64,000 nt of DNA from Desulfurococcales archaeon (GCA_015523295.1 WAKQ01000002.1:3424-67423), one strand, 5' to 3'; positions 16,686 to 53,021 are shown, numbered from the stretch's first letter. Notes: generated by a model not told the origin, from the letters alone. Numbers and translations are program-made.

Positions 16686-17642
16686 ATGGGTGATCATATA
16701 ATGCACGAGTCTCATGAGAAAGAGAAAAACTCCTCTGAAGCTCATACAACCGAATGCCCCCCTGATAAAATTGTCTACGATGAGTTTCGAGGAGAGTACA
16801 TATGTACTGAGACTGGAGAGGTTGTTGAGGATAAGGTTGTTGACCAAGGACCTGAGTGGAGGGCCTTCACACCTGAGGAGAGGGAGAAAAGGTCAAGATC
16901 AGGTTCTCCACTCTCCCCAACAATTCATGATGGTGGACTATCCACTATGATTGACTGGCGAGACAGGGACGCCTCCGGAAAGAAACTTGAGTTAAAGCGC
17001 AGGTTAGAGGTTATGAGGTGGAGGAAATGGCAGATAAGGACGAGAATTCAGAACAGCATAGACAGGAATATAACGCAAGCAGCCACAGAGCTTGAGAGGA
17101 TAGCTGATCAGCTAGGGCTACCCAGGTCTGTTAAGGAACATGCTGCCACCATCTATAGACAAGCAGTTGAGAAAGGGGTGGTTAGAGGTAGAGCTGTTGA
17201 GTCAGTAGTTGCAGCAGCCCTCTACGCGGCATGCAGGATATTCAAGATACCTAGAACACTAGATGAAATATCTCAATATACGAAGACAAGCAAAAAAGAG
17301 GTGGCTAGATGTTATAGGTTGCTTGTGAGAGAACTTGACATTAAAATACCTATAGCCGATCCTGCTGACTTTGTATCAAGAATAGCTGCTGCTTTAGGGT
17401 TAAGTGGTAACGTAATAAAGAAGGCGATTTCAATAATTCAGGAGGCCAAGACCAAAGGTTTGACTGCTGGGAAAGACCCGGTAGGTCTAGCTGCAGCAGC
17501 TGTCTACACTGCTGCCCAAATCTATGGGGAGAGAAGAACACAGAAAGATGTAGCTCAAGTAGCCGGCGTTACTGAAGTAACCGTGAGAAATCGGTATAAG
17601 GAACTAATCCAGTACCTTAAAATCAAGGTTCCAGAGCAATAG
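16686..17642 (+). CDS. tfb: transcription initiation factor IIB
   Basis: B-reader DQGPEWRAF, two cyclin repeats, [12 protein letters not shown]. Confidence 0.98.
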
Positions 17643-17661
17643 CAAAAACATAAATTTCTAT

Positions 17662-17994
17662 TTACTCAGCCTCAATAAAGATTATATTCTCCTCAGGGAT
17701 CCCGAACTCCTTAACAAGGATTTGTTTCACCCTCGACCTGTGATTTCCCTGTAATTCAATATGATTGTTCTTTACAGTACCCCCAGTAGCTAGTTTTGCC
17801 TTAAGTGTGGAGGCAACTTTCTTTAAGTTAAAGACCCCTGGATCTAGTCCCTCAATAATCGTTACCTCTTTGCCGAACTTCCTTCTTTCTATCTTTATTT
17901 TAATTAATTGCTGCTCAGCACCTAACTGCATACATAGTTCTTCTGGTAATCCGCTGCATAGAGCTTCAATATTCTCCATATCTTTGCCCGACAT
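17662..17994 (-). CDS. translation initiation factor aIF1 (SUI1)
   Basis: [17 protein letters not shown] and IELQGNHR motifs. Confidence 0.95.
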
Positions 17995-18140
17995 GACCCA
18001 CCCTGCTACATTTTTCTCAAGGTAGCAGACCTTAAAAGGTTTTAGGAGGAAATTTAAACATCTCTATAATTAAATACTTCGATTAAGATGGTATATCTCC
18101 TCAGTTAAATCTATAAGCCCAGTACCACCAACCTTATAAG

Positions 18141-18332
18141 GTGGATTTAGTGGAGGAGGACATCCTTTATAAATGTTGGATGTGCGGGAAAGTCTTCAGA
18201 AGAAGCGATGTGGAAGCCTTTGAAGCTAGAGAAATTGGAGAGGGGTACGCGTTTATTCGATGTCCTGCCTGTGGCTCAAAAATAATAACTAAAATTAGAA
18301 GGGAAGGCTTTAAAAGAGTTAAGGCAATCTAA
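18141..18332 (+). CDS. rpoP: RNA polymerase subunit P (Rpo12)
   Basis: YKCWMCGK...IRCPACGSKIITKIR...VKAI. Confidence 0.9.
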   Translation: MDLVEEDILYKCWMCGKVFRRSDVEAFEAREIGEGYAFIRCPACGSKIITKIRREGFKRVKAI

Positions 18333-18399
18333 GGCAGTATTCAAAGCTATTTAGTTGTGAGAACTTCATAATTTATATTTATTATATTTATTCCTTCCT

Positions 18400-18711
18400 T
18401 CATAGGTTGATTAGACCCGCATCTGCTAATTGATGAAGTATCTCGGCTACAGGTTCCTTAAGCTCATCCGGCGTCATTGCAGTTTCAGGGTTCTCGCTTA
18501 ACTCCTTACTGATGTTGTTTATAAGTTCCTCCACAGTTTTCTCACCATCGCACTTAATCCAAACATAGTAAGCTCCCGGAGTGAGTGAGTAGGCTTTCTG
18601 CTCGTCGATAGCCACCACGAAGTTATCTCCATCCATACTAACGCTTGAACCAAGCCTCTTTGGCTTTAATCCCTTTATCTCCTCATAGCTAAGTACCTTA
18701 TCCTCACTCAT
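18400..18711 (-). CDS. PqqD-like (RRE/wHTH) protein
   Basis: YSLTPGAYYVWIKCDGEKTVEELI...L..L...GLI; start reassigned to MSEDK, which overlaps the SSB stop. Confidence 0.7.
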   Translation of the reverse strand: MSEDKVLSYEEIKGLKPKRLGSSVSMDGDNFVVAIDEQKAYSLTPGAYYVWIKCDGEKTVEELINNISKELSENPETAMTPDELKEPVAEILHQLADAGLINL

Positions 18712-19198
18712 AACGGTTGCCTCTTCCGTAACTACTGAAACCGTAAGAACGCCTTCTAAAGCTCCTTCTCTGAGGCCTATATCCTTCGGGTGCTTTAGGA
18801 CTATTCTGAGGGATCTCCTCTGCTTGAGGAACGCTAGCGTCATCAGCTTCTTCTATATTACCTTTTCCGCCTATATTTAGCTGAACATCTCCTCTATAGG
18901 TGGTTGTCCATGCACCCTTAATTTCAACAGCGCTTCCTTCTTTCAGTTCACCAGCAGCCTTACCCCAGAGAGTAAGCTTAACCCTACCAGTCTCATCACC
19001 TACAGTAGCCTCACTTATGGTTCTCTGACCAGACCTCGTGTTTATCACTTTAGGCTCTCCCGCTTCTAATACTCTTACAACTACGTCAAGGTTATTCATT
19101 TCTGGTTTAAGATCCATAACCTTAACTTTTTCGTTTTTCCTATATCCTCCAAATTCCGACATACGATTCAACTCCGACTTACGTAACATGTAAATCAA
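18704..19198 (-). CDS. ssb: crenarchaeal single-stranded DNA-binding protein
   Basis: Single OB fold VGDETGRVKLTLWG...AWTTTYRG; Arg/Gly-rich tail. Confidence 0.95.
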   Translation of the reverse strand: MIYMLRKSELNRMSEFGGYRKNEKVKVMDLKPEMNNLDVVVRVLEAGEPKVINTRSGQRTISEATVGDETGRVKLTLWGKAAGELKEGSAVEIKGAWTTTYRGDVQLNIGGKGNIEEADDASVPQAEEIPQNSPKAPEGYRPQRRSFRRRSYGFSSYGRGNRYE

Positions 19199-19357
19199 GT
19201 ACCAAGGTTATTAAGCTATAATGAAGATACAGATTAAAAACCTGGTTAGAAGATGCTGATCAAAACGCTAGGAACTCAATTAAGTGGCTGGATTTACTTG
19301 ATTTGAATTTAGCAGGAAAAACTATGGGAAAAAAAGCAGTGAAATTCAACTCTTTCC

Positions 19358-19585
19358 TCATGCCTTCTCTACTGTGATAGACCCTGTCGGGCAGGCTGTC
19401 CTGGCCTGCTCAACACAGTCAGCCAGATCGTCGGGGACGTTGCCTTCTGTCTCCGAGCCCGCTCTATACTGCTCCACAATCTGACTCTTACCGTCTGGTC
19501 CTGCCTCAAAGACTTGAGGACATATGGCGTAGCATACTCCATCAGCTATGCACGTATTCCAGTCTATCTTTACCTTAAGGGGCAT
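19358..19585 (-). CDS. fdx: monocluster ferredoxin (Asp-ligated type)
   Basis: CIADGVCYAICP...CPT, with Asp at the second ligand position. Confidence 0.93.
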   Translation of the reverse strand: MPLKVKIDWNTCIADGVCYAICPQVFEAGPDGKSQIVEQYRAGSETEGNVPDDLADCVEQARTACPTGSITVEKA

Positions 19586-19711
19586 GTTTTTCCACCGTGA
19601 TATGTGTTAGATGGGGAAAATAAGCATAACGCGTAAGAGTCCATATAGTCAATAGAGCCTTTCATAATGACCAAAAAACTAAAAAACATCTATTATATAC
19701 TCCTCTCGGTA

Positions 19712-19829
19712 GGGCCCGTAGCTCAGCCAGGCAGAGCGCCCGGCATGCCGGATACCGGCACGGGACTCATAAGAATGCTCTGTCTGGGGCACCGGGTGGT
19801 CCGGGGTTCAAATCCCCGCGGGCCCACCA
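19712..19829 (+). tRNA. tRNA-Ile(CAT) with two introns (22 nt at ~31/32-32/33; 19 nt at 37/38)
   Basis: GGGCCCG acceptor stem; CCCGG[catgccggataccggcacggga]CT-CAT-A[agaatgctctgtctggggc]A-CCGGG; removal gives a 77-nt cloverleaf. Confidence 0.85.
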
Positions 19830-19863
19830 ACTCAAAACATTGAAGGCAGTAAATCAACTATCT

Positions 19864-20325
19864 TTAGGGCAAGTAAAACTCGAGTGAGGATCTCTTCCCT
19901 GGAAACATCTCAAATACTAAGGCAAGAAGTTTGCTAGGATCGCAAGCAGCGGAGGATATTCTAAACAAATGCGATATATGCCGCCTTTTATCTGTGTTAC
20001 CGAATCCTTTCACTGGTTGAGTTGTATTTCGACCTGATATAATTGTGTAAAGTTCATCTTCACTCACTCCATAAAATATCAGGGATGCCAATGGCTTACA
20101 CATTGTTGTAAGGTAGTCGATATGCCAATGAAGTTTCTTATATTTCTTGAAATGCCTCTCAATTCTTTTTAGAGGGTTCCTAATATTTGCTGAACCAATA
20201 TACAAGTAGCATCCTTTTGGCAGAACTGGGTTAACTGCTTTCAACGGTAAATTCACTGCTGAATCACATAAAACCACCAACAAATAGCCGACTTTTTTAC
20301 TCTTTAAGGAGCTCATATAACTCAA
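19864..20325 (-). CDS. GIY-YIG nuclease (DUF123 family)
   Basis: GCYLYIGSA, RIERH, HWHIDYL, GFGNTD and SHLF motifs. Confidence 0.9.
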   Translation of the reverse strand: MSYMSSLKSKKVGYLLVVLCDSAVNLPLKAVNPVLPKGCYLYIGSANIRNPLKRIERHFKKYKKLHWHIDYLTTMCKPLASLIFYGVSEDELYTIISGRNTTQPVKGFGNTDKRRHISHLFRISSAACDPSKLLALVFEMFPGKRSSLEFYLP

Positions 20326-20677
20326 TACCCAATTTCCTATAAACTCTTATTATGTCTCTAATACCTGTATTCTTTTGTTCTACAGATTTAATCGCTTTCC
20401 CCGTTCCGTAGAGGGCAGCACCTACAGCATAAGTTACTCCAGTAGGATCTGCTGGAAAAGTTAAGAAAACCATAGCTGCCTTTTCCAGGTTCTCTGACTT
20501 AGTTGACTCATTCTGCATCCCCATAACCGGTTTAAGAACTGAGGCAGTATCTTTCAGAAGATTTACCGCTCTCACAGTACCTTTAGCACTGCATCTAGCG
20601 TTTTGAGTTACCTCCTTAAGAGAGGAGGCGATCTTCAATGCATAATCCTTTCTCACATCCCTCACCTTCTCAATCAC
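20297..20677 (-). CDS. hypothetical protein
   Basis: Co-oriented overlapping ORF with one hydrophobic hairpin. Confidence 0.6.
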   Translation of the reverse strand: MIEKVRDVRKDYALKIASSLKEVTQNARCSAKGTVRAVNLLKDTASVLKPVMGMQNESTKSENLEKAAMVFLTFPADPTGVTYAVGAALYGTGKAIKSVEQKNTGIRDIIRVYRKLGIELYELLKE

Positions 20678-20708: not shown

Positions 20709-21005
20709 TCACGAGCCGGCCTCCGCAGCTTCCTCCGGCGTTGAAACCACGTCAATTTCAAGGTTCTCTGCGCTCTCTAAAGCCTTAAGAAGCTTAATGC
20801 CTAAACCGGAGACTTTATATACCCTATAATTCCCTTTCTCATTAACTAGCTCGATAATCCCTAGAGCCTCCAGAACGTGGAAAGTAGCCAACACTTCATA
20901 ACGAGGTAATCCGGTTGCCGCAACTACATCACCTGGTGTTACCACCCGGCCTACCATCGACTCTATTATATTCTTTAACCTTTCCCTGAAGCCCCTCACA
21001 AGCAA
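20709..21005 (-). CDS. winged-helix DNA-binding protein
   Basis: TPGDVVAATGLPRYEVLATFHVLEALGII...YKVSGLG; divergent from the pilus operon. Confidence 0.8.
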   Translation of the reverse strand: MLVRGFRERLKNIIESMVGRVVTPGDVVAATGLPRYEVLATFHVLEALGIIELVNEKGNYRVYKVSGLGIKLLKALESAENLEIDVVSTPEEAAEAGS

Positions 21006-21073
21006 CCACCGTCAAAGCACTGCGATTATATGAATATTTAAAACGGAAGACCCTTCAGAACAATTTTTAAACC

Positions 21074-21565
21074 ATGTATCTTTGTGAGGTGATAACAAAA
21101 GTGAGAAGAAAATATCTGGGTAAACCATCAAGGAAAGGTGTCAGTGATCTGGTTGTCATCCTGACCCTCATGGCAATTTCTATACCGGTTGTGATGGCTG
21201 TACAGAGTTGGTTAGGAGCTCAAACTTCCAGAGTGAACTCACTTGTGACTACCCCAGAACTCCAAGGTGTTCTCATAGGAAAGTCTAGCGAGGGTGATTT
21301 CAGTATATTTATCTTAAAGATTACAAATAATGGGGACTCCTCCTACAATCTCTCATCTGCTAACGTGGGCGTACAAGCCATTCTACGGAATGGTTCTACA
21401 ATACCAGCTCAATTCACACCAGTTAAAAGCGAGTTGCTCAAACCAACCGGATCAGTGACAGCTGTGGTGAAAGTAGGCACTCCCCTAAACAATGTAAAGA
21501 CGCTGGTACTTGAATTTACAGCAAACAATGGCGAGGCATACACCCTGAACATAAACATAGATTAG
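21074..21565 (+). CDS. archaeal type IV pilin
   Basis: Class III signal peptide RKG/VSDLVVILTLMAI followed by an Ig-like domain (ITNNGD). Confidence 0.85.
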   Translation: MYLCEVITKVRRKYLGKPSRKGVSDLVVILTLMAISIPVVMAVQSWLGAQTSRVNSLVTTPELQGVLIGKSSEGDFSIFILKITNNGDSSYNLSSANVGVQAILRNGSTIPAQFTPVKSELLKPTGSVTAVVKVGTPLNNVKTLVLEFTANNGEAYTLNINID

Positions 21566-21617
21566 TTAAAAACGAACATCCCCTCTTTTTACCTTCCCTG
21601 AACCTCGAGGGATCAAG

Positions 21618-22877
21618 TTGAAAGTCATATTTCAATACTCGGTCGGAGAAGCAGAAATACAAGTGGTCAAGACTGTGAGAGGATATCAATATATCATAAA
21701 CAAGCCCTACACCCATGAATTTTCTAGGAAGGTTAGAGATGCAGCTGAAATCGCGATCATGAGCAATCCCTCACATACTGAAATATACAGCATAGCTAAA
21801 AGGATTGCAAGACTCCTCAAAACTAAGGGAGAGCAAGAAACTGCGATTGTCTATTCACTTAGGGAATCTCTGAAGTATAGGAAGCTTCAGGTGCTTATTG
21901 ACGACCCCTACGTAGAGGACATCTCTGCTGTGGGACCAGGACCTATATGGGTTAGGCATTCACGTCTCTTAGGGATGGATCCCTCAGTGGATTACATACC
22001 AACAAACCTAGTGTTTGATGACAGGATAGACTTCCTGCAGCACCTCCTACTGCTTGCCGAGAGATCGGGGAGGATGATTTCAAAGGCTAACCCGATAGTT
22101 GATGGTAACCTCCCAGAAGAGGATGGAGGTCATAGGATCCATCTAGTCCTACCAGATATAGCTGGTATGTCTGGTGAGATCGTTGTGCGGAAGAAAAAAC
22201 CCTTCCGAAGTATCACATTAGAAGATCTTAGGAAGGGTGGAATGCTAGATGATGAAATCATTAAAATTATTGAAAGGATAATAAAATCTAGAGGGTCTTT
22301 ACTTATCGTAGGTCCCCCTGGTTCAGGCAAGACGACCCTACTCAGAGCAATATTATACAGTTTGGTTCCTAGGTCATGGAAGGTAGCTATAATTGAGGAC
22401 ACGCCTGAGATAGATCCTCCTCCAGGGTCATCATGGGTTAGGTATATAGTCCCTCTAAGCTGGGGTTCGGTAGAAAGCCTTGATCAGTTTAGCCTGACTA
22501 AAGCCGCCTTAAGAGCGTCTGTAAGTAAGTTCTTGGTAATCGGGGAGACTAGAGGGAAAGAGGCTAGAGTTCTCGCACAGGCAATGAACATGGGCCTAGG
22601 TGGGCTTACTACATTTCATGGAGGCAGTGCCTCGGAGGCTATCATGAGATTGTCCTCTCATCCCATCAGCCTCGGCCCAACACAGATAACGATGTTTGAT
22701 GCCATACTAACATTAGGTTTCCTTGAAGTGAATAAAGGTGGTCTCCGGAGGACTGTCGTTTCAGTGGACAAGCCATTTATTGCTGAAAGAGGTCTTGAGC
22801 TCAAGAATATTTACAGGTTAGATAACACAACTAATCCGTCTCAACCAAGAGAAGTCATAATTACTTTAGCTAGGTGA
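21618..22877 (+). CDS. type IV pilus / type II secretion ATPase (VirB11/TadA-like)
   Basis: GPPGSGKTT, IEDTPEI, IGETRGKEA and TTFHG motifs. Confidence 0.93.
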   Translation: MKVIFQYSVGEAEIQVVKTVRGYQYIINKPYTHEFSRKVRDAAEIAIMSNPSHTEIYSIAKRIARLLKTKGEQETAIVYSLRESLKYRKLQVLIDDPYVEDISAVGPGPIWVRHSRLLGMDPSVDYIPTNLVFDDRIDFLQHLLLLAERSGRMISKANPIVDGNLPEEDGGHRIHLVLPDIAGMSGEIVVRKKKPFRSITLEDLRKGGMLDDEIIKIIERIIKSRGSLLIVGPPGSGKTTLLRAILYSLVPRSWKVAIIEDTPEIDPPPGSSWVRYIVPLSWGSVESLDQFSLTKAALRASVSKFLVIGETRGKEARVLAQAMNMGLGGLTTFHGGSASEAIMRLSSHPISLGPTQITMFDAILTLGFLEVNKGGLRRTVVSVDKPFIAERGLELKNIYRLDNTTNPSQPREVIITLAR

Positions 22878-24418
22878 TGTCCTCAGTGAATTTCATAGTA
22901 AAACTGAATGCAGAGCTAACTGACGCCAGAAATGCTTTTCTCTCGTTTATAATTAAGCAATTTGCGGAAGCTGGACTAAAAGTTAACGAGAATCCTACGA
23001 CAAACATCCTATACCTCATTATATATGGTCTTCCCCTAAGCATAACATTAATCTACCTCCTTAGCTTCTTTACAAACCTTCTTACCTTTAGAGCGCTTTT
23101 AATGATCCACGAGGGATTCCTCCTACCTATCCTACTCTTCATAATTCTGGGCATATCTTTCCCTTCAGGTATCATTGTGTTAAAATTGCTCGCCCTCACA
23201 CGTGGGAGAAGAGTTGAAAAGGAGGTTAAATATGTAGTAATTGCTGAATCCATAATAGCCCAAGGGACTCCTAATTTAGTTGAAGATCTTTCTTCCCTTC
23301 ACATATGGAGGAATGTTTTCCCCTCTCTCGAGAAAGAGGGGTGGGTAATATCAGCGTTAAGAAGGATCTTCACAGTCCCTGAAACTGTTCGGATATATAT
23401 AAAACTCCTAAAGTCCCCTTGGGTTAAGGAGCTTTTACAGGATTATCTATTCGCCTTAAGCTTGGGGTCTACTAGGGAGTGGCTCCAGGTAAAAGGTAGG
23501 GAGGTAACCGACGAGATAAAAAAGGGAACTAAGGCCGCATTGGAAGGAAGAATCTCTATATCCCTTATTACAGCTATATTACTGGGATACACCCCGCCCC
23601 TCGTTATAACACTTTCTTCTTTATTGGGAAGGGAGATCGTGGAGCGCGCGTTACTATTAACTACCTTAGCGATACCTCTAGCCCTGACTATCACACCACA
23701 ATATCCAGTCCATATGAAAATAATACGCGGGATTAACCGAAAAGCCTTATCACTTATTGTGTTCCCTCTCTTAGCTCTTCTAATCATGAGAATAGAAGGG
23801 CTGGTAACCCTTAGAGAGACTCTACTTATCACTTCCTTAGCTCTAATAGCCTACGGCACATTCTCCTTTTATAATGATGTGGAGGGTTTGAGGGAGATTA
23901 GATCCTTGGTGGGTATACTAAACATATTACATGAGACGCCCTTAAGTAAGGCTGCCTCTTTAAGCATCATTAAGGAAGCTCTCATGCATTCCCCGGAAAA
24001 GACCTGGAGAAACATTGGTGAGGAACTAACCCTAATCACACTCCCGAAAAGCATGAGTAGACTTAAAACATGGATTTCAAGGTTCACTGTTTACGTCCTC
24101 ATAAAAGGTTTAGAATACGGCTGCCTAAACAGGGAGAGCCTAGCTAAGCTCTCAGGCTTGATCATTGATTCTCTTCACGACCTTAAGGTTGCTTTAGCAA
24201 GTAACTTAGTAGTGGGTAGTTTAGCTGTAACACTTCCATTCATTCTAACTTCTATAACGTCCTTCATCACTCCAGACCCAATTTTAAAGATATATACGTT
24301 CGTTTCAACTATGGGTTATGGATTCTACGCATCCTACATATTATTCAACGATATTAACAATACCTTAATTCCTGGAATTATTGGTTTAGAGTTATCCTTT
24401 CTGGTGAACCCGGCTTGA
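22874..24418 (+). CDS. TadC/FlaJ-like membrane platform protein
   Basis: Two cytoplasmic domains each followed by TM clusters; directly follows the pilus ATPase. Confidence 0.65.
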   Translation: MMSSVNFIVKLNAELTDARNAFLSFIIKQFAEAGLKVNENPTTNILYLIIYGLPLSITLIYLLSFFTNLLTFRALLMIHEGFLLPILLFIILGISFPSGIIVLKLLALTRGRRVEKEVKYVVIAESIIAQGTPNLVEDLSSLHIWRNVFPSLEKEGWVISALRRIFTVPETVRIYIKLLKSPWVKELLQDYLFALSLGSTREWLQVKGREVTDEIKKGTKAALEGRISISLITAILLGYTPPLVITLSSLLGREIVERALLLTTLAIPLALTITPQYPVHMKIIRGINRKALSLIVFPLLALLIMRIEGLVTLRETLLITSLALIAYGTFSFYNDVEGLREIRSLVGILNILHETPLSKAASLSIIKEALMHSPEKTWRNIGEELTLITLPKSMSRLKTWISRFTVYVLIKGLEYGCLNRESLAKLSGLIIDSLHDLKVALASNLVVGSLAVTLPFILTSITSFITPDPILKIYTFVSTMGYGFYASYILFNDINNTLIPGIIGLELSFLVNPA

Positions 24419-26514
24419 AGCCGAAAATTATTTCAGCAATAGACCTCATATCTTTTCTTAAGGCTCATAAGATAAAGGCTGAGGGCACCGTAGTAAAGCT
24501 AGTGAACGATTCTGAAAGGGAACCCTATCTCATTATACGTCCGGCAAGCGGAGACACGTTCTTCATGAAGCTAAACCCCGAGTTAGATGATGGCAATTTA
24601 ACCGTGTCAGGGAGAAATGCTTGTCCCTCTAATCAAAACTCAATACCAGTTGTAAAAAGTATGGAACGTCCAGGTGGGTACGTTCTCTTCATATCGAATG
24701 CTGACAATGTTCTTCGAGTTAATGTGTGCGACAGGCTGAACCGCATAATAAGCAGATACTCAGTTAGAGGGAATAGCAGCAACATTCTCTGCGGTAATGG
24801 GCTTTGCCTAACGGTAGGAAAGAAGGAGAACATTGCCCTAACACCTAATGGATATCATCCGATGGTTAAGGGCTTAACACCGCTTATGTATTGCAAAGGT
24901 GATGAATATTATGTTGACATAGGTAATAAGCTCCTCGTTAGATATGACGGGAATGTCCTCACTCCTTTAACCAACTATAGCTTTCAGTATATGGATTGTA
25001 TGGATAAAGGAGTCATATGCCTTTCCGACGGCAGAGATGTACATATTATTGAAGAGGGTGCGTCCTATGACGTGGCTGTAGGAGAGGTAAAAAAGCTTCA
25101 CTGCTATAAAGACATTGTACTCACAGGAAAAGAAGGAAGGTGGAGCCTGTACATCTTAAGCAAGGGCATTTCTTCCGACTTCTTTGCTGATGAGTGCATC
25201 TTAAGCAATGGGGGATTTATTTACTGTATTTCTCGTGGAATACTGGTATCAGTAGACCCTTATACAGGGATAGACGAATACGTACGCAAGTTAAGAGGTG
25301 TTGTCACGTCTAAGACATATGCTGTAGTTGAAGTGAGTCCCTGGGGACCTATGCATAACTACAAAGTATCCGGGCCGGTTAAGATCGTTTCTACATTCCA
25401 AGCAGGTGATACACTTAAGATGTTGTTAAGGCCGATGAAGTTGGGCTGGTCAGGTGAAATCTTCGTAAATGTTGAATCCCCTCTCTACATGTATAATGGA
25501 AAAATATCTCTGACCTCTTCAAAACCGGTGATCTCTAACATAAGCATAGATCACTGCATGTTCGCTCCCACGGGGAATATTGTTGGCGAAAGCTCCAATT
25601 CCATCACAGCATTAAAATTCAATGTTCTGAGAACTACCCCAGAAAAGTACACTTTGATCATAAGAGGCCATTACGTAGATGTAGTCAAGACCTCATTTAA
25701 GATTTCTAGCGCGGGAGATGAGGATTTATGGCTAGTCAATATCAAAGGTAGGATAGGCTCCGAAGGTATTAATAGCGGGTATGTCTTATACGATATCAGG
25801 TTTAAATCGTCTTTTGAGGAATTTCTTCTCTCCAGACTCATGCTTCCCTTAAGTAAATGCGTGAAAGTTAATGAACCTGTAAGCAAGATAAAGGCCTTCA
25901 GATATGGAAATAACTTAAAAATTAAGACCTCGAACAGCAATTTCCATCTCAAAGTATATTGCCTGGATTCCTTCTTCGAGGGTGTAGGCTCCGTTACCCT
26001 GGACAAATGCACATTACCTATAGTAGTTGAGGAGATCAAAAGAAGAGGGATGTTTGAATGGGTAAGTCATTCTCTGTTGCAATTAGAACCACTGTTAAAT
26101 CTTCATGAAAGTGAAAAACCGAAATACGAGACTGCTGTTAAGAGCACAGATAATGAGATAGACGTGCACATCCCGAAGAAACCTCCACGGCAAGATGTAA
26201 AACTTCATGGAGTACTTTTTGAGAAAATAAGGGAACCAGCATATTTAATCAAGATCTCAACGGGCTTGCCTGCGTTATCATTTATCGTCTGTGGAGAGAA
26301 GTCCTACATTTCAATGGGGAGTGAGGTATTGAAGAAGATTCATTGCCCTATTTTCAAAGCACTTAATGGAGTGTATGTGTATACCCTATATCCCGGACTC
26401 CCTGCTGAAAAAGCTCTTGGGAAATCAGTGATCAACGGCGTCCAAGCCTTTAGAGAAATACTTATCTCGGGTGTAAAGGCAGGCAATGAATTGCGTAGGG
26501 TGCTCACGCGATGA
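24415..26514 (+). CDS. large hypothetical protein (beta-rich, Cys-containing)
   Basis: 699 aa, overlaps both neighbours by 4 nt; no signal peptide or motif recognised. Confidence 0.7.
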   Translation: MKPKIISAIDLISFLKAHKIKAEGTVVKLVNDSEREPYLIIRPASGDTFFMKLNPELDDGNLTVSGRNACPSNQNSIPVVKSMERPGGYVLFISNADNVLRVNVCDRLNRIISRYSVRGNSSNILCGNGLCLTVGKKENIALTPNGYHPMVKGLTPLMYCKGDEYYVDIGNKLLVRYDGNVLTPLTNYSFQYMDCMDKGVICLSDGRDVHIIEEGASYDVAVGEVKKLHCYKDIVLTGKEGRWSLYILSKGISSDFFADECILSNGGFIYCISRGILVSVDPYTGIDEYVRKLRGVVTSKTYAVVEVSPWGPMHNYKVSGPVKIVSTFQAGDTLKMLLRPMKLGWSGEIFVNVESPLYMYNGKISLTSSKPVISNISIDHCMFAPTGNIVGESSNSITALKFNVLRTTPEKYTLIIRGHYVDVVKTSFKISSAGDEDLWLVNIKGRIGSEGINSGYVLYDIRFKSSFEEFLLSRLMLPLSKCVKVNEPVSKIKAFRYGNNLKIKTSNSNFHLKVYCLDSFFEGVGSVTLDKCTLPIVVEEIKRRGMFEWVSHSLLQLEPLLNLHESEKPKYETAVKSTDNEIDVHIPKKPPRQDVKLHGVLFEKIREPAYLIKISTGLPALSFIVCGEKSYISMGSEVLKKIHCPIFKALNGVYVYTLYPGLPAEKALGKSVINGVQAFREILISGVKAGNELRRVLTR

Positions 26515-28280
26515 ACCTTAAGAAATTCTTAGCTATGTTGAGAAAAGGGAGACCTTACAATATTAGGGAAGGGAGCCACAGGAGATTTACTGTGATCTAC
26601 TCGGATGAGAGCAAGATCTGTGGTAAAATCACCTTAAGAATAAAAGGTGTCTCAAGAACTTTAACAGATATGGAAGCTGATGATCTTAAGCGTTTCCTGA
26701 AGAGCTACTTTAACATGCTTAATGTTGGTTTCCCTATAGAGATATCCACTAGGATCTTCCCTATTTCAACTGAGAAATACTTGGAAAGGATAGATAAGAA
26801 AATAGACACGTTGAAGGTGATCTTAGAGGATAATCCTTCCTTAACGGGACTCAAAGATGAAATCAGAAGACTAGAAAACCAGAGGAAATCCCTACTAGAG
26901 GGTAATCACCCCCTAAAGATTGAGGCGCTAATATATATTTATGGATGTGCGCCATCTTCTGATGAAGTCCTAAGACTACTTGAACATAGGGCTAAAACTC
27001 TGCGGGACGTGTTGTCATCACTCGGTATTAGAGCCTCACCTATTGAAAGCTCTAACTCTGAGGAATTCAACCAAACCTTTTTTCGTGAATTAGGCATCCC
27101 AACCAGTTTGCCTCGCAAATTAACTGAATTTATTAACTCACTTAAACCAAAGCAGTATCTGATCTTGGCGTCCAACATTTCAGCAATCTTCTTCCCTTTC
27201 CTTCTAGGTGGAAAGACTGAGGCAGAGGTTTCGAACACAGGCATCATCATTGGAACAGATCCCCTAAGAAATAGCGTAATCACTTGGGATCCCAGCTCCA
27301 GTACATCACCACATGTGATAGTTGTTGGCCCTACAGGATCAGGTAAGACCACATTCCTTACGCAGCTAGTGGAAGAGTTTAGAGATGCATACGGAGCCGC
27401 ATCTTTAATTATAGACGTTAAAGGTGAATACAAAGAGAGGCTGGATTCCCTGGGTATTAAGTATGTGAAGCTTCGTTTAGGGGAGGATGCAGGTGTTGAC
27501 CTATGCAAGTATATGAACATGTTCCCACCTAGATGGAGAGGCGATGTATTAACTGATGTCATAGCCCAGTCATTCAGTGTCTTTAAATTGCCTGAATTGA
27601 CAGGTAGGCTGCATGAGGCAATAGAATTAGCTACATCGTCAGGTTGCCATAATCTTATCAACTCACTGATGGAGTACATACGCCTGAAAGGAAATGATTA
27701 CTATACATTCAAGTTAGCTACCGTTCTTCATAAGATCGAGCTCCTAGAGAGGGATGATAGAGATGATATGATTGCCTATATAATTGATTTTCTAGCAGGA
27801 ATCCTCAATAAACCTGTAATATTAGACCTATCCTATCTCCTAGGATTAGAGCCAGAATTGGTTGTAATGATTGTTAGTATCACGTCAAATCTCATTCTCT
27901 CAATGGTTAAGGAGATGCCTAGGGTTTTTACGAGAGCTTGGAAGCTACTAATCTTTGATGAGGGATGGCTTTATATAAGGCCATTAAGGGGGCTTATAGC
28001 TCCTCTCTTAAGGCTAGGAAGGAGTTACAGACTTAGTGTAGCTATTGCTACTCAAGATCTTAAAGATCTCGAATTTCTAGGGGGGTTCGCTGCAAGCAAT
28101 ACAGGGCTTCTCATAGCTCTCTCATCTACAGATAAGTCATACTGGAAGGGAATTTCCTCCTATATGAACATTAATGATGAGGAAGTAACTTCCTATATAT
28201 CCCTCCTCAGGAAGTGTGAAGGTGTTGCAAGGGTGGGTAGTGACCCCAAAGGAAGGCCTGTAACTTTCAAAACTTGTTAA
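26511..28280 (+). CDS. VirB4/HerA/FtsK-family ATPase
   Basis: PHVIVVGPTGSGKT, IIDVKGEY, IFDEGW and GRSYRLSVAIATQ motifs; N-terminal coiled-coil domain. Confidence 0.88.
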   Translation: MNLKKFLAMLRKGRPYNIREGSHRRFTVIYSDESKICGKITLRIKGVSRTLTDMEADDLKRFLKSYFNMLNVGFPIEISTRIFPISTEKYLERIDKKIDTLKVILEDNPSLTGLKDEIRRLENQRKSLLEGNHPLKIEALIYIYGCAPSSDEVLRLLEHRAKTLRDVLSSLGIRASPIESSNSEEFNQTFFRELGIPTSLPRKLTEFINSLKPKQYLILASNISAIFFPFLLGGKTEAEVSNTGIIIGTDPLRNSVITWDPSSSTSPHVIVVGPTGSGKTTFLTQLVEEFRDAYGAASLIIDVKGEYKERLDSLGIKYVKLRLGEDAGVDLCKYMNMFPPRWRGDVLTDVIAQSFSVFKLPELTGRLHEAIELATSSGCHNLINSLMEYIRLKGNDYYTFKLATVLHKIELLERDDRDDMIAYIIDFLAGILNKPVILDLSYLLGLEPELVVMIVSITSNLILSMVKEMPRVFTRAWKLLIFDEGWLYIRPLRGLIAPLLRLGRSYRLSVAIATQDLKDLEFLGGFAASNTGLLIALSSTDKSYWKGISSYMNINDEEVTSYISLLRKCEGVARVGSDPKGRPVTFKTC

Positions 28281-28840
28281 ATTTTCAATGTATGCTGCTT
28301 AATAATCCTTCTGCTGTCTAGATCCTTGATTTCTATTTGCACGGAATTCGTAGAAAGAGTTAACACAGCATAACTTCTAAGGCCACTTAAATAACCTGAT
28401 AAGGCCCCAGGATTTACAGCAGCTTTACCTTCACGCATCTTCACACTGTACATATGTGTATGGCCGTAAAGTATGACGCTACCTCTAGGGGCTTGGCTAA
28501 GAATGGCATCTACAATATTTTCTGTCACTTCGGGAGATCCGAAGCCATGCAGTAGTATAAAATTAACTCCTTCAATCTTCAAGGAGTGGGGCTGATCCTT
28601 CAGAGAAGGGCATATTTCCTTCAACATAACCTTATCTCCATCGTTATTTCCGAAAACCCCAACCAGCTTCTTTCCTGTTTTCAGGAGGGCTCTAAGAGTG
28701 AATGGTGAGATTATATCGCCTAAGTGGATCAGCATATCAGCACGGTTAAAATCTTGATACATTGACAACTTATTAACAGCTTGAATGCTGTCATGCGTAT
28801 CTGAAATAACAAGCAGCTGAATCACTTTGCACACCCTCAA
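28277..28840 (-). CDS. YfcE-family phosphodiesterase
   Basis: SDTHD, HLGD, GNNDGD, YGHTH and NPG motifs. Confidence 0.92.
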   Translation of the reverse strand: MRVCKVIQLLVISDTHDSIQAVNKLSMYQDFNRADMLIHLGDIISPFTLRALLKTGKKLVGVFGNNDGDKVMLKEICPSLKDQPHSLKIEGVNFILLHGFGSPEVTENIVDAILSQAPRGSVILYGHTHMYSVKMREGKAAVNPGALSGYLSGLRSYAVLTLSTNSVQIEIKDLDSRRIIKQHTLKI

Positions 28841-41162: not shown

Positions 41163-42159
41163 ATATAAAGAACGTGAAATCCCGGACTCCGTCGTCAAGA
41201 TACGTGAAGACATTAGAACTATGGTGATCAGAGGCGCTGGAAAAATTGCTAGGGCTGGAGCGAAGGCTCTCGCACAGGCTGCTCAAGCATATAGCGGTTT
41301 CAGCTTAGATGACTTTCTCAACTATATGGAGGCTGTGGCCGAGTATGTAAGGTCAGCTAGGCCAACGGCAGTGTCCCTGCCAAATGCAGTGTCCTACGTC
41401 ATGATCAGACTTAAGAGGCTCCATCCTTCAAGCCTCGAAGAAGCGAGGACAGCTGTAATTAAGGCCGCTGAGGAGTTCATCGAGTACTCGATTAACTCGG
41501 TGAAGATAATTGGAGAGTTAGGAGCCCGAAGGATCTCGAATGGCGATGTCATCATGACACACTGTCATAGTACTGTGGCGGTCTCAGTAATAGCAACAGC
41601 TCATAAACAAGGAAAGGTTCATAAGGTATATGTTAAGGAAACGAGGCCTAAGATGCAGGGATTAATAACTGCAAAAGCATTGTCCGATGAAGGCCTCGAT
41701 GTTATACTGATCCCAGATTCCTCAGTGAGATACTTCATGAAAAGAGTGAATAAAGTAGTTGTTGGTGCTGATACTATAGCTGCTAATGGAGCGGTTATTA
41801 ATAAGATAGGCACTTCCCTTGTAGCGCTAGCAGCTAAGGAGGCGAGAGTCAGAACCTATGTAGCTGCAGAGACATATAAGTTCAGCCCTCTAACAGTAAT
41901 AGGCGAGTTAGTACCGATAGAGGTGAGAGAGCCGACAGAGATAGTAGACGAGGCTTGGCTGAAGGAAAATCCGAATGTGAAGGTATACAATCCAGTCTTC
42001 GATGTCACCCCGCCAGAATATGTAGACGCAATAATCACTGAGAAAGGAGTAATCCCTCCGCAAGCAGCAATCCTCATCCTCATGGAAGAATACGGGTTAA
42101 ACGTATCAGACATACTAACCCAGTTTAATGAGGTGAAGGAAGAGGAACTAGGGGAGTAG
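41152..42159 (+). CDS. ribose-1,5-bisphosphate isomerase
   Basis: IRGAG, RPTAVSL, THCHS, ETRP, GAD, NKIGT and FDVTP motifs. Confidence 0.9.
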   Translation: MPVKYKEREIPDSVVKIREDIRTMVIRGAGKIARAGAKALAQAAQAYSGFSLDDFLNYMEAVAEYVRSARPTAVSLPNAVSYVMIRLKRLHPSSLEEARTAVIKAAEEFIEYSINSVKIIGELGARRISNGDVIMTHCHSTVAVSVIATAHKQGKVHKVYVKETRPKMQGLITAKALSDEGLDVILIPDSSVRYFMKRVNKVVVGADTIAANGAVINKIGTSLVALAAKEARVRTYVAAETYKFSPLTVIGELVPIEVREPTEIVDEAWLKENPNVKVYNPVFDVTPPEYVDAIITEKGVIPPQAAILILMEEYGLNVSDILTQFNEVKEEELGE

Positions 42160-43134
42160 GTAAGCCTTAACTCCGAGTTTCTTCGTTAGGTAGTTAGTGA
42201 AAAGCTCTCCATCAGTGCTTCTTTTAGAATTAACTACAACCGCCTTAGGCCTAGCTAATTGAATGTAGGTAATTAAACCTTGGAAGTCTGAGTGATCGCT
42301 GAAGGCTACGAGCCACCAATGATGACCCAGTCTTCTAAGAGGGCTTCTAAACTCCCATCCACTGAGTTTTATATGATTACCTACTCCATTCTCCCTGTTC
42401 TTGAAGAAATGTGTGAAGAATATATACCATCCGTCTTTAATGATGGCATCAGCTTCAGGCGACGATTCCTGATGATAATCGCCGATCTTAAACCCATGCT
42501 TCTCTAATGCTTTTGTCAATGCATACTGCTTGTAATCCATAATGAAGGGAGCATCTATCCCCTCCTTCCTTAGAAGCATCATAACCTCCTGTGTCTTGCC
42601 GTAATACCCGTGGATCCAGACAGGGCCCTTCGATAGAAGCTCCTTAACCAGATCCACGAGCACGATGTCTATATAGTCATCGAATACTCTTCTGAAGGAA
42701 GGATTCCCATAAACAGCATCTGTAACGACAATGTCAGCGTTAACTACTGGCGTGTAAGTTCCAGGCTTCTTAAAATCACTTGTATACACAATCCTTAAAC
42801 CCTCATCGTCTTCACATACTACCTGCGCTGTGCCAGGGATATGATAAGCTTTGACAAGCAATACTTCTCCACAACCTAGTCTAATCCTCTCTCCATATCT
42901 CAACGGATGAAGAATTGATTCATTTATCCTGTACCCTAATAGGTTAAGCCATTCTAGAGTTACCGGAGTGCCGATGATCTTCGTCGCCTTCCTTGCTGAC
43001 CTTCCAAGGTATTTTGTGTGATCGGAGTGAACGTGAGAGACCACTCTAACGAGACCGTCTTCATGTCCGTCGATCACTAAGGAATCTCTAATCACTATGC
43101 CTCCGTGAGGGTTTATTCTGAGGATATTATCCAT
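42148..43134 (-). CDS. MBL-fold (beta-CASP-like) nuclease
   Basis: SHVHSDH, HIPGT, YTSDF and FSDHSDF motifs. Confidence 0.85.
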   Translation of the reverse strand: MDNILRINPHGGIVIRDSLVIDGHEDGLVRVVSHVHSDHTKYLGRSARKATKIIGTPVTLEWLNLLGYRINESILHPLRYGERIRLGCGEVLLVKAYHIPGTAQVVCEDDEGLRIVYTSDFKKPGTYTPVVNADIVVTDAVYGNPSFRRVFDDYIDIVLVDLVKELLSKGPVWIHGYYGKTQEVMMLLRKEGIDAPFIMDYKQYALTKALEKHGFKIGDYHQESSPEADAIIKDGWYIFFTHFFKNRENGVGNHIKLSGWEFRSPLRRLGHHWWLVAFSDHSDFQGLITYIQLARPKAVVVNSKRSTDGELFTNYLTKKLGVKAYLLP

Positions 43135-51320: not shown

Positions 51321-52049
51321 CTAATGCAATAGATGGATAAACAGCTCGATCATCCACTCCTGAGGCGTTAGCAGTGCTGCAACGTACCCCACTAAATAGA
51401 ACAACACGTGAGGAAATCCAGGCGTAACCCAGAGAATATCCACCTCCTTTAACATTCCCTTACCAACCATCTTCTCGATTGAAGCTCTGACCCTATCTTC
51501 CTCCTCATCATCAAGGCTAAAGGAAGTTCTGCATAGATAACCCTCCTCTAAAGGTATCGTGAGAGGGTAGACAAACTTGCTTTTTAAAAACCTTCCAACA
51601 CTCAATGGCCTCCCCAAAAAAATCAGAAGAGCCTTAGACCCCTCCACACATTTGATTTTGCCCATCTCCTTCCAGTGCGCTAAGTTCAAGATAAAATAGT
51701 AGCCCATAACAGCAACCGGTATTAGCAGGGAATATATGAGGGTTAACAAAGATATAGGGAAAATGTAGAAGAAGGGATGGGCTAAGGAGATAAGAAGTAA
51801 GGCGAGAAAGTCAGCACCACCAATCATATCAAGTAAAGAGAGGGCGAAGACTGCTAATGAAGGGATTAAAGAAATGAGGGTATGAATTACATCATATCTT
51901 CCTAAAATGAGGTTGACAACAACAACTACAGCTAGGGAGGGCAACCATGTAAGCTCGGGTATGTCCCTATACTTCACATCACGGTATGACGCATAAATAA
52001 GCGTTGAGAGAACTGCTCCAACAACTACACCTTCATAGAGGTTCAGCAG
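51321..52049 (-). CDS. prepilin/preflagellin peptidase (A24, PibD/FlaK)
   Basis: ASYRDVKYRDIP (first catalytic Asp lies upstream of the ORF-track start), GGADF and WVTPGFP; CTG start at 52049 proposed. Confidence 0.85.
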   Translation of the reverse strand: MLNLYEGVVVGAVLSTLIYASYRDVKYRDIPELTWLPSLAVVVVVNLILGRYDVIHTLISLIPSLAVFALSLLDMIGGADFLALLLISLAHPFFYIFPISLLTLIYSLLIPVAVMGYYFILNLAHWKEMGKIKCVEGSKALLIFLGRPLSVGRFLKSKFVYPLTIPLEEGYLCRTSFSLDDEEEDRVRASIEKMVGKGMLKEVDILWVTPGFPHVLFYLVGYVAALLTPQEWMIELFIHLLH

Positions 52050-52064
52050 ACCCCAACACCGCTT

Positions 52065-53021
52065 TCAATCTTCAATGTCACGTATCCCTTCATCAGTTAT
52101 GATGAAGACGGCCTCTCCTTCAGGGAGGTGCGGTGCGTCAACAATCCTGGCAATCCTTTTTCCTCCCCTACTCTTTCGAAGCTGAACCCTTATCCCCGGA
52201 GCATGTGCGAGGACGTGACCGCCTACCGCCGTAGTCGGATCCCCGTAGAATACGTCAGGTCTTGCCATCACCTGATTAGTTACTACTACTGCTACATCAT
52301 ATACATCTGCTATCCTCGCCAGTTGGTGCAAGTGCCTATTGAGTTTCTGCTGTCTAGTAGCTAGATTCTCCCTGCCCGGGTATTCAGCCCTGAAAAGACC
52401 CATAACCGAGTCTACAACCAATAGCTTTATGTTCTCCTTAGCTATCACATCCATTGCTTCCTCAACGATGGCTATCTGATGATCGCTGCTTATTGCCCTA
52501 GCCCATATAATGTTCCTCATCACCTCATCCGGGTCTAGATCCAGAGCCCTAGCCATAGCCTCAATTCTCTCCCACCTAAACGTACCCTCCGTATCGATAT
52601 ATATGGCCTTACCGCTCAAGCCTCCTCTCTCAGGAGGTAGCTGAACGTTCACAGAAAGCTGATGACAGATATTAGTTTTACCGCTTCCGAACTCCCCAAA
52701 GAACTCGGTGATGGTCCTCGTCTCAATACCTCCTCCAAGAAGCTCATCAAGCTTTTTGGAACCTGTGGTTATCCTACCTATGCTCTCTCTTTCCTTCTTG
52801 AGCTCTAAGGCCGTCTTGAAGCGAAGGCCTAACGCCTCTCTCGCCTTGCTCACGATTCTATGCGCTGTCGGTGTGGGGATCCCTACTATACTAGCGAGCT
52901 CGCTTACATTGGCAACCGCCACTGCCTCGAGGGTCTTGAAGCCGGCCTCAGACAGTTTATGCAGTAAGGAAGGGCTGAGACCTAGATCCTCAAGAGTCTT
53001 AATCTTCCTCTCTTCACCCAT
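52065..53021 (-). CDS. radA: DNA repair and recombination protein RadA
   Basis: [24 protein letters not shown] and [10 protein letters not shown] motifs. Confidence 0.98.

Follow-up and report, generated by a model that had tools for sequence, protein, structure and literature searches.

Sulfolobus exchanges DNA by means of two functionally tied systems: the Ups pili, type IV pili that bring about species-specific aggregation of cells induced by ultraviolet (UV) light, and the Ced system, an importer of DNA that has CedB as its VirB4-like motor. The former are encoded by the ups operon (upsX-upsE-upsF-upsA-upsB); the latter comprises CedA, CedA1, CedA2, CedB and CedD in the Sulfolobales. Here we describe a locus that carries relatives of both systems in a single operon: positions 20,709 to 28,280 of a 64,000-nucleotide stretch of DNA (hereafter the window) from a Desulfurococcales archaeon (GCA_015523295.1 WAKQ01000002.1:3424-67423), where genes for a type IV pilus are followed by a gene for a protein of 699 residues and by a gene for a VirB4-like ATPase.

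UpsX, the product of the first gene of the Sulfolobus ups operon, is without an explained role in the published accounts. In S. acidocaldarius it is cytoplasmic and needed neither for pili nor for aggregation; UV-induced DNA transfer falls to about 50% when it is lost, and after UV some 35% of the protein shifts to the membrane (PMC3892339). A corrigendum (PMC5221435) leaves the result for the clean upsX deletion intact. The published accounts place the Ups genes and UpsX in the Sulfolobales only, and from this range it was inferred that other Crenarchaea either need no aggregation for Ced exchange or use other appendages. Cultured Desulfurococcales have a cedA1-cedA-(cedA2)-cedB cluster, and the UpsX column of Table S1 in PMC11823120 is empty outside the Sulfolobales. 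For Ignisphaera aggregans the same table gives a cedB (Igag_0989) that stands far from its cedA (Igag_0132/0133). Desulfurococcus is reported to have VirB4 in place of CedB, and some CedB proteins to have no N-terminal transmembrane anchor.

Gene layout

We consider it likely that, in this lineage, the locus corresponds to the Ups/Ced DNA-exchange apparatus of Sulfolobus, with parts of both in one transcription unit. The source genome (G000) is a metagenome bin of 932 kb in 22 contigs, about 77% complete; the sole sequencing run found to contain the 7.6-kb stretch is a DNA run of a hydrothermal vent metagenome, from which this DNA may itself derive, and no RNA run was found. The features of the locus are:

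20709-21005, minus strand: winged helix-turn-helix (wHTH) gene, 98 residues, assigned to the SSO5209 family
21006-21100, no strand: divergent promoter region with two TATA-like boxes and a candidate operator between them
21074-21565, plus strand: pilin-like gene, open reading frame (ORF) of 163 residues, start probably GTG 21101
21618-22877, plus strand: T2SSE-type pilus assembly ATPase (FlaI-like), 419 residues, PF00437
22874-24418, plus strand: polytopic pilus platform protein (TadC/UpsF-like), 514 residues, profile homology to UpsF
24415-26514, plus strand: UpsX-like protein, 699 residues, predicted to be soluble and nearly all beta strand
26511-28280, plus strand: CedB, VirB4-like P-loop ATPase, 589 residues, without N-terminal membrane anchor

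The first-pass annotation of this DNA had listed a pilin, a pilus ATPase, a TadC-like membrane protein, a 699-residue ORF and a HerA/VirB4-type ATPase, with a wHTH gene divergently upstream, and all six are present at these coordinates. The 4-nucleotide overlaps that it reported for the last four genes are exact at each of the three junctions (22874-22877, 24415-24418 and 26511-26514, from the ORF coordinates).

The CedB ATPase

The ATPase encoded last in the operon matches the NCBIfam CedB model (NF041017) with an E-value of 4.9e-56 and 190.6 bits, residues 42-587 aligning to model positions 78-585 of 590. In Pfam it matches DUF87/HerA-central, AAA_10 and TrwB around the P-loop only; the NCBIfam models for HerA, VirB4 and CedD are likewise confined to the P-loop region (E 1e-7 to 1e-2; HerA 7.5e-3). 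In a maximum-likelihood tree of 45 FtsK/HerA-type proteins, it forms a clade with five CedB of the Sulfolobaceae (bootstrap/Shimodaira-Hasegawa-like approximate likelihood ratio test, 100/98); this clade lies within a broader CedB-like group (98/94), and CedD branches apart from it (100/98). The HerA-like paralogues, those that this genome itself encodes on contigs C14 and C21 among them, fall into separate clades in both our careful and our quick tree. Our trees are small samples, in which two families (f4 and f6; f1 denotes the family of the window in GTDB) are represented by the ATPase part only. Within the 100/98 clade f4 branches first, the Sulfolobaceae are sister to f1, f3 and f6 with only 70/71, and the CedB encoded next to CedA fall outside it. 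We assign the ATPase as a CedB orthologue. A grouping with housekeeping HerA, which the first-pass annotation had kept in view, is ruled out because HerA-like proteins form separate clades and the HerA models are limited to the P-loop.

The AlphaFold2 model of the protein (mean predicted local distance difference test, pLDDT, 77.6) has as its best match in the PDB, by Foldseek, TrwK/VirB4 of R388 (E 1.8e-15, about 600 columns), with HerA and TrwB ranking below. The VirB4-type ATPase coupled to a pilus operon that had been proposed is borne out.

A simple hydropathy scan, on which all our calls of membrane segments rest, found no N-terminal hydrophobic segment in the first 200 residues of the window's CedB. 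Such a segment is present in none of the 10 full-length CedB encoded next to an UpsX-like gene (the window's included) versus 5/5 CedB of the Sulfolobaceae; it is also seen in the CedB of f7, f12, f2, f9 and locus L043, and not in that of f10. In f6-type loci (L077, L148-L150, L046) and in f4 (L144-L147) cedB is split into a gene of about 190 codons for the N-terminal domain and one of about 380 codons for the ATPase. The recurrence of the split across genomes argues against an assembly error as its cause, and the split point corresponds to a low-confidence linker (residues 181-241) in the model of the window's CedB.

The UpsX-like protein

UpsX is the sole NCBIfam match of the 699-residue protein, at E 6e-6 over residues 297-463 (25.2 bits; cut-off 550). 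It is also the sole NCBIfam match for three of 12 further members of its family, nine having no match, and for the protein of family f6. When a profile of 13 family members is compared with one of 15 UpsX of the Sulfolobaceae, hhalign gives a probability of 98.6% (E 1.4e-15) for a colinear alignment of 493 columns that reaches a shared C-terminal helix. A hidden Markov model (HMM) of 30 members matches within the UpsX of two Sulfolobaceae, G036 (4e-14) and G083 (3.3e-12). By the comparison of profiles (98.6%), the protein is a remote UpsX homologue. The family is rare: a search of 1.84 billion representative proteins returned 32 clusters at E <= 1e-3. Proteins of about 700 residues from f7 and f11 (L076, L078) that match the UpsX model weakly were dropped; they stand in unrelated contexts and gave no family match on rescan.

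The AlphaFold2 model of the UpsX-like protein (pLDDT 86.9) is nearly all beta strand, with a small N-terminal domain, a propeller-like part, beta-sandwiches and the C-terminal helix. Foldseek against the PDB returned generic beta-propeller and Ig/FN3 matches alone, with template modelling scores of 0.26 or less, and a search of the ESM Atlas gave nothing above 0.82. The hydropathy scan found no N-terminal or strongly hydrophobic segment in 30 family members or in 15 UpsX, in agreement with the cytoplasmic location predicted for UpsX in the literature (PMC3892339); marginal internal hydrophobic stretches occur in a few rows, as they do in the window's CedB. A complex prediction for the UpsX-like protein with residues 1-215 of CedB scored 0.00 (mark 0.32), which speaks neither for nor against binding. 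The first-pass annotation had listed this ORF as an unknown and had called for profile and fold searches: with these now made, its fold matches are generic propeller and Ig-like, and by profile its family is placed as remote UpsX.

Conservation of the operon

The UpsX-like gene is present in 19 of the 24 other f1 genomes, in 11 of the 26 genera searched (that of the source genome counted); a single-protein query did not find it in 16 genomes of 12 other families. The order pilin, ATPase, platform, UpsX-like gene, cedB is complete in 15 of 20 loci, and the other five are cut at contig ends and compatible with it. With 15 of 20 related loci showing it, the arrangement is not due to chance, and the ATPase gene is conserved beside pilus genes. 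Genomes of one family are mutually related, which means that these counts are not counts of independent events. By profile search the same operon was found in f3 (L143), in f6 (L077, L148-L150) and at locus L046; L039 and L040 have it as well. The four f4 loci all hold a wHTH gene, a gene of about 800 codons and cedB, with no pilus genes at the locus. Profile-profile comparison places the f4 proteins of about 800 residues with the UpsX-like family (94.7%, E 6e-8, 572 columns), and two divergent f6 proteins are homologous to it as well (97.7%). The survey across relatives proposed in the first-pass annotation thus recovered the operon in f1, f3 and f6, and a wHTH, UpsX-like, cedB arrangement in f4.

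In all 21 genomes with a match to the family HMM at E <= 1e-30, the tables of matches place a CedB match adjacent to it on the same contig, and the stop of the UpsX-like gene and the start of cedB abut or overlap in 27 of 30 gene pairs, ORF starts being taken as those of the longest ORF. Public records that contain the operon are metagenome bins labeled as Desulfurococcaceae, Desulfurococcales or "uncultured Sulfolobales" archaeon.

In genus g11 of f1, represented by five near-complete genomes (G012, G022, G101, G126, G156), neither CedB nor CedA was found (0/5 each), and the family HMM gave a single weak UpsX-like match (G101, E 3.8e-7; 1/5). CedB, CedA and the UpsX-like protein are all present in the other f1 genera sampled. 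In g11 it looks like the whole system was lost as a unit.

The pilus genes

The pilin probably starts at GTG 21101 rather than at 21074. This start lies 25-30 nucleotides past a TATA-like box and yields the N-terminus MRRKYLGKPSRKG/VSDLVV, the slash marking the cleavage point; RKG/VSDLVV and the hydrophobic helix that follows are kept in related loci. RKG/V is what we take to be a class III-type cleavage motif. In NCBIfam the pilin has a weak family match (UpsB, E 0.07), and its f6 homologue matches UpsA at E 2.9e-4.

The pilus ATPase matches Pfam PF00437 (T2SSE) with 75.9 bits (cut-off 24.9; E 3e-21) and, in NCBIfam, FlaI (4.3e-47) and BasE (4.2e-35), both below their cut-offs. The cedB-linked pilus ATPases of f1, f3 and f6 form a long-stemmed clade of their own with 100/100 support. 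In several genes for type IV pilus or archaellum ATPases, large in-frame insertions split the tblastn or HMM match: the ORFs have 887 codons in L029 and L038, 753 in L039 and 831 in L040, and elsewhere in the source genome 798 (contig C19, FlaI-like), 726 (C20) and 1013 (C4). These insertions look like inteins; the window's pilus ATPase (419 residues) carries none.

For the platform protein, comparison of its family profile with that of the Sulfolobaceae UpsF gave 96.8% (hhalign, E 2.2e-10, 443 columns); UpsF was the only profile compared, so the homology is not specific to UpsF. The prepilin peptidase that had been noted elsewhere in the window is there as well, directly adjoining radA on the same strand:

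51321-51977, minus strand: prepilin (class III signal) peptidase-like gene, Pfam Arc_PepC_II (E 1.9e-13)
52065-53021, same strand as the peptidase-like gene: Rad51/RadA gene (E 2.4e-93)

The peptidase-like gene likely encodes the processing enzyme for this pilin. By the PF00437 match, the platform homology, the pilin N-terminus and the Arc_PepC_II gene, the genes have what is expected of a generic archaeal type IV pilus.

The regulator and the promoter region

The wHTH protein matches NCBIfam SSO5209_fam at E 3.2e-22 (78 bits; the cut-off of 140 is not reached) and finds only a weak MarR_2 match in Pfam; we assign it to the SSO5209 family. Homologues stand divergently upstream of the operon in f1, f3 and f4 and at loci L039 and L040. 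Just beyond upsB, an SSO5209-family gene was found in three of the five Sulfolobaceae ups loci examined, and a 90-codon ORF beside ups in L081 exceeds the cut-off of the SSO5209 model (153 bits). A full-text literature search found no mention of SSO5209.

In the divergent intergenic region of 68 bp, a conserved spacer of about 20 bp lies between two TATA-like boxes. Ten loci were compared: the spacer, GACGGAAC-CC-CTTCAGAAC, is nearly identical in five of them (the window, L016, L017, L018 and L019) and looser in the other five (L022, L026, L028, L031 and L143). This spacer may serve the wHTH protein as operator. The UV promoter motif described for Sulfolobus, the hexanucleotide A(N)TTTC, is too short for testing at this locus.

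Other Ced genes and cluster types

The first-pass annotation saw no relaxase, integrase or CedA-like gene. For relaxase and integrase this stands: a Pfam scan (E <= 1e-5) of the 67 other ORFs of the window found neither. CedA is present on another contig of the genome. Using a profile of the 470-residue CedA built from canonical cedA clusters of other families, we found a cedA homologue at positions 8339-9682 of contig C7 (E 2.5e-69), flanked by an 87-codon cedA1 (E 8.8e-22 against PDB 8DFU) and a 54-codon cedA2-like gene with two predicted transmembrane segments, and with no cedB there. Contig C3 carries a gene for a CedD-like protein (E 2.4e-68, below cut-off). CedB thus co-occurs with CedA, CedA1 and a CedD-like protein in this genome, at separate loci. 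An NCBIfam scan of 26 membrane or unassigned ORFs found no Ced family.

In 12 of 13 loci of f2, f7, f9, f10 and f12, genes of about 88, 470 and 55 codons stand immediately before cedB; the 87-residue protein of one of these loci (L151) matches the structure of the Aeropyrum pernix CedA1 pilin, 8DFU (2.2e-25). They represent the cedA1-cedA-(cedA2)-cedB cluster given for cultured Desulfurococcales in Table S1 of PMC11823120. In f7 (L151-L153) a second ATPase gene of 608-655 codons lies on the opposite strand, about 4 kb from cedA1-cedA-cedA2-cedB; its product matches CedB more weakly (E about 1e-22), and it may be the cedD counterpart.

Genomic surroundings

The operon lies among housekeeping genes (TFB, SUI1, SSB, tRNA ligases and RadA), the GC content of the window is flat (0.40-0.47 per 2 kb), and no integrase or relaxase family was seen in the scan of the 67 ORFs; the locus is chromosomal, as had been thought. 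Upstream of the wHTH gene, positions 16686-20677 encode a full-length TFB (TFIIB repeats and zinc ribbon), SUI1, an SSB-like OB-fold protein, a ferredoxin, a DUF123 (GIY-YIG-like) protein and a 126-residue ORF (orf126) without an assigned family; downstream of cedB is a gene for a YfcE-like phosphodiesterase (28277-28840). The DUF123, orf126 and YfcE-like genes keep their synteny across f1 and not in f3, f4 and f6, and since it is limited to f1 we do not count them as parts of the system. Farther along (42148-43134, minus strand) is a 328-codon ORF with no Pfam match at 1e-5, which matches NCBIfam TIGR04122 (ligase-associated DNA damage response exonuclease) at E 1.6e-20, below cut-off.

Comparison with known systems

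With the Ups operon the locus shares a type IV pilus gene set, a homologue of the UpsX protein, otherwise unique to that operon, and an adjoining wHTH gene of the SSO5209 family. It differs in having one pilin gene instead of two, in holding cedB inside the operon, in its pilus ATPase, which belongs to a clade separate from UpsE, in leaving the UpsF, UpsA and UpsB models unmatched, and in the remoteness of its UpsX homology. With the Ced system of the Sulfolobales it shares a CedB of the same clade (100/98), and cedA1-cedA-cedA2 and a cedD-like gene stand at separate loci, as in Sulfolobus. The differences are that CedB here has no N-terminal transmembrane segment and lies far below the equivalog cut-off, and that cedB is translationally linked to the UpsX-like gene within a pilus operon. 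The Ced clusters of Desulfurococcales of the A. pernix type are built from the same component families, CedA1 of the source genome matching 8DFU. In them, however, cedB comes directly after cedA, the sampled CedB have an N-terminal hydrophobic segment in four of five cases (f7, f12, f2 and f9; not f10) and lie outside the 100/98 clade, and the family HMM finds no UpsX-like gene in f2, f7, f9 and f12; its weak matches in f10 (E about 1e-7; 2 of 18 genomes) were judged unrelated.

Among more distant systems, bacterial competence pili (ComG/Pil) likewise pair a type IV pilus with a DNA-translocation ATPase, but the translocase is not homologous, and here a separate VirB2/VirB6-like conduit (CedA1/CedA) is encoded in the genome. 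VirB4 (TrwK of R388) is the best full-length structural match of CedB, with a template modelling score of 0.67 for the C-terminal ATPase domain against 4ag5; sequence identity is 13-17%, the locus has no other parts of a type IV secretion system (T4SS), and the Ced system of Sulfolobus imports DNA rather than exporting it.

The accessible parts of the papers searched (PMC11868833, PMC11823120, PMC9905601, PMC4858521, PMC13705601, PMC3892339, PMC5817253) contain no description of cedB within a pilus operon, of UpsX homologues outside the Sulfolobaceae, of the invariable order of UpsX-like gene and cedB, or of a CedB in that clade that has lost its anchor; PMC13705601 mentions none of CedB, HerA and VirB4. 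Full-text searches, judged for most hits from the listings, gave no such description either. The locus is thus undescribed in the literature searched, although it could appear under another label in the first Ced paper or in figures and supplements of the pilus surveys (PMC4858521, PMC13705601). The component families are known; in the parts of the literature named above we found no description of the arrangement or of UpsX-like and Ups-like genes outside the Sulfolobaceae. A wholly uncharacterised system, as first proposed, it is not: the ATPase is assigned as CedB, the 699-residue protein as UpsX-like and the wHTH protein as SSO5209, CedA1, CedA and CedA2-like genes are present on another contig, and the locus therefore maps onto Ups plus Ced.

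Proposed working and alternative explanations

Most likely the operon provides a contact pilus that is co-expressed with an UpsX-like/CedB module for DNA exchange. The SSO5209-family wHTH protein and the shared promoter region would control its expression, and it would yield a type IV pilus (pilin, assembly ATPase, platform), a soluble UpsX-like protein and CedB. The pilus would make contact from cell to cell. The Ced conduit encoded elsewhere (CedA1 pilin, CedA channel, CedA2-like and CedD-like proteins) would be powered by CedB. Having no anchor, CedB would need a partner to bring it to the conduit, for which the UpsX-like protein is the foremost candidate. Because CedB is anchorless and the UpsX-like gene always stands directly upstream of its gene, we propose that the two proteins act together, the UpsX-like one most likely recruiting CedB to the membrane or regulating it there. 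Of the pilus coupled to a nucleic-acid or protein translocase put forward in the first-pass annotation, the coupling to a VirB4-type translocase is upheld, and nothing supports the translocation of protein.

Several points weigh against a counterpart of the Ups/Ced apparatus. The matches to CedB, UpsX and SSO5209 all lie below the NCBIfam equivalog cut-offs; for CedB the cut-off is 700 bits, which in 151 genomes sampled from the order was reached by the Sulfolobaceae alone (18 genomes). The clade of the pilus ATPase stands outside UpsE plus BasE, FlaI and the Aap-like ATPases, with backbone bootstraps of just 12-23; in this tree it is not nested with UpsE, and the tree neither establishes nor rejects a sister relation to UpsE. 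For the platform protein, Pfam and NCBIfam gave no match at E <= 0.1, the UpsF model included, and for the pilin there was no useful match to the UpsA or UpsB models. Given the separate ATPase clade and the missing matches to the three Ups models, we therefore call the pilus Ups-like by association and not a member of the Ups subclade. The gene order, pilin-ATPase-platform-UpsX-like-cedB, is not that of ups. UpsX itself is without a known mechanism, so homology to it transfers a phenotype and not a function. The f4 loci, with their UpsX-like/cedB pair and no adjacent pilus genes, mean that the link to the pilus is not obligatory. The bin from which the window comes, finally, is only about 77% complete.

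The same loci bear on three other explanations. That the linkage is merely regulatory, an adhesion pilus and cedB sharing a promoter and the UpsX-like protein having a role separate from CedB (in pilus regulation, or as a surface or scaffold protein), appears unlikely. It would suit a pilus ATPase that is not demonstrably of the Ups type, the generic propeller and Ig-like folds returned by Foldseek for the UpsX-like model, and the Sulfolobaceae, which hold upsX with the pilus genes and cedB elsewhere. It does not sit well with the persistence of the UpsX-like/cedB pair in f4 without pilus genes, with the abutment or overlap of the two genes in 27 of 30 pairs and the adjacency to cedB of all 21 strong HMM matches, or with the deletion of upsX, which alters DNA transfer and not pili (PMC3892339).

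It is also improbable that the pilus itself is the DNA-uptake device, in the manner of competence pili, binding DNA or reeling it in, with CedB docked on the platform through the UpsX-like protein and no CedA channel involved. The place of cedB as last gene of the pilus operon with 4-nucleotide overlaps, the want of an anchor in CedB and the distance of cedB from cedA in these genomes are all in keeping with such a device. Against it, CedA1, CedA and CedD-like genes are encoded in the same genome; genus g11, where CedA and CedB are both absent (0/5 each) and a single weak UpsX-like match remains, argues that these proteins work jointly; the f4 loci hold the UpsX-like/cedB pair without pilus genes; and Ups pili of Sulfolobus serve aggregation and not import. 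Part of an integrated conjugative element or other mobile DNA-export system, to which a VirB4-like ATPase encoded together with a pilus might point, the locus almost certainly is not, given the absence of integrase, relaxase, coupling-protein and other mobile-element families in the 67 ORFs of the window (E <= 1e-5), the housekeeping neighbors and even GC content, the recurrence of the DUF123, orf126 and YfcE-like neighbors across 11 f1 genera and the position of the ATPase within the chromosomal CedB clade. Neither flanking attachment sites nor a lack of the locus in close strains was seen.

For a counterpart of the Ups/Ced apparatus one may go a step further, although we hold this only tentatively: the UpsX family may consist of dedicated CedB partners that physically link pilus contact to Ced import, and in the ancestral state of this order the pilus genes would have formed, with upsX and cedB, a single module under wHTH control. 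The Sulfolobaceae would then have split the module, upsX staying with the pilus genes and cedB, which carries its own anchor there, leaving, and f4 would have lost or moved the pilus genes.

Significance for DNA exchange in the order

The Ced system takes three forms within one order. In the first, cedA1-cedA-cedA2-cedB encodes an anchored CedB and UpsX is absent; in the second, cedB stands after an UpsX-like gene, and pilus genes may or may not accompany the pair; the third is the dispersed arrangement of the Sulfolobaceae. These forms give a basis for working out how type IV pili and a domesticated T4SS came to be linked. The range of Ups genes and UpsX has been claimed to be confined to the Sulfolobales, yet in at least three more lineages of family rank a single unit holds a pilus operon together with an UpsX homologue and cedB. 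The function of UpsX has been without explanation since 2013, and the placement of an UpsX-like gene upstream of cedB gives a testable hypothesis that the two proteins work jointly. If true, a partnership of UpsX with CedB would be the first mechanistic role for UpsX, and contact pili of the Ups type for DNA exchange would not be confined to the Sulfolobales.

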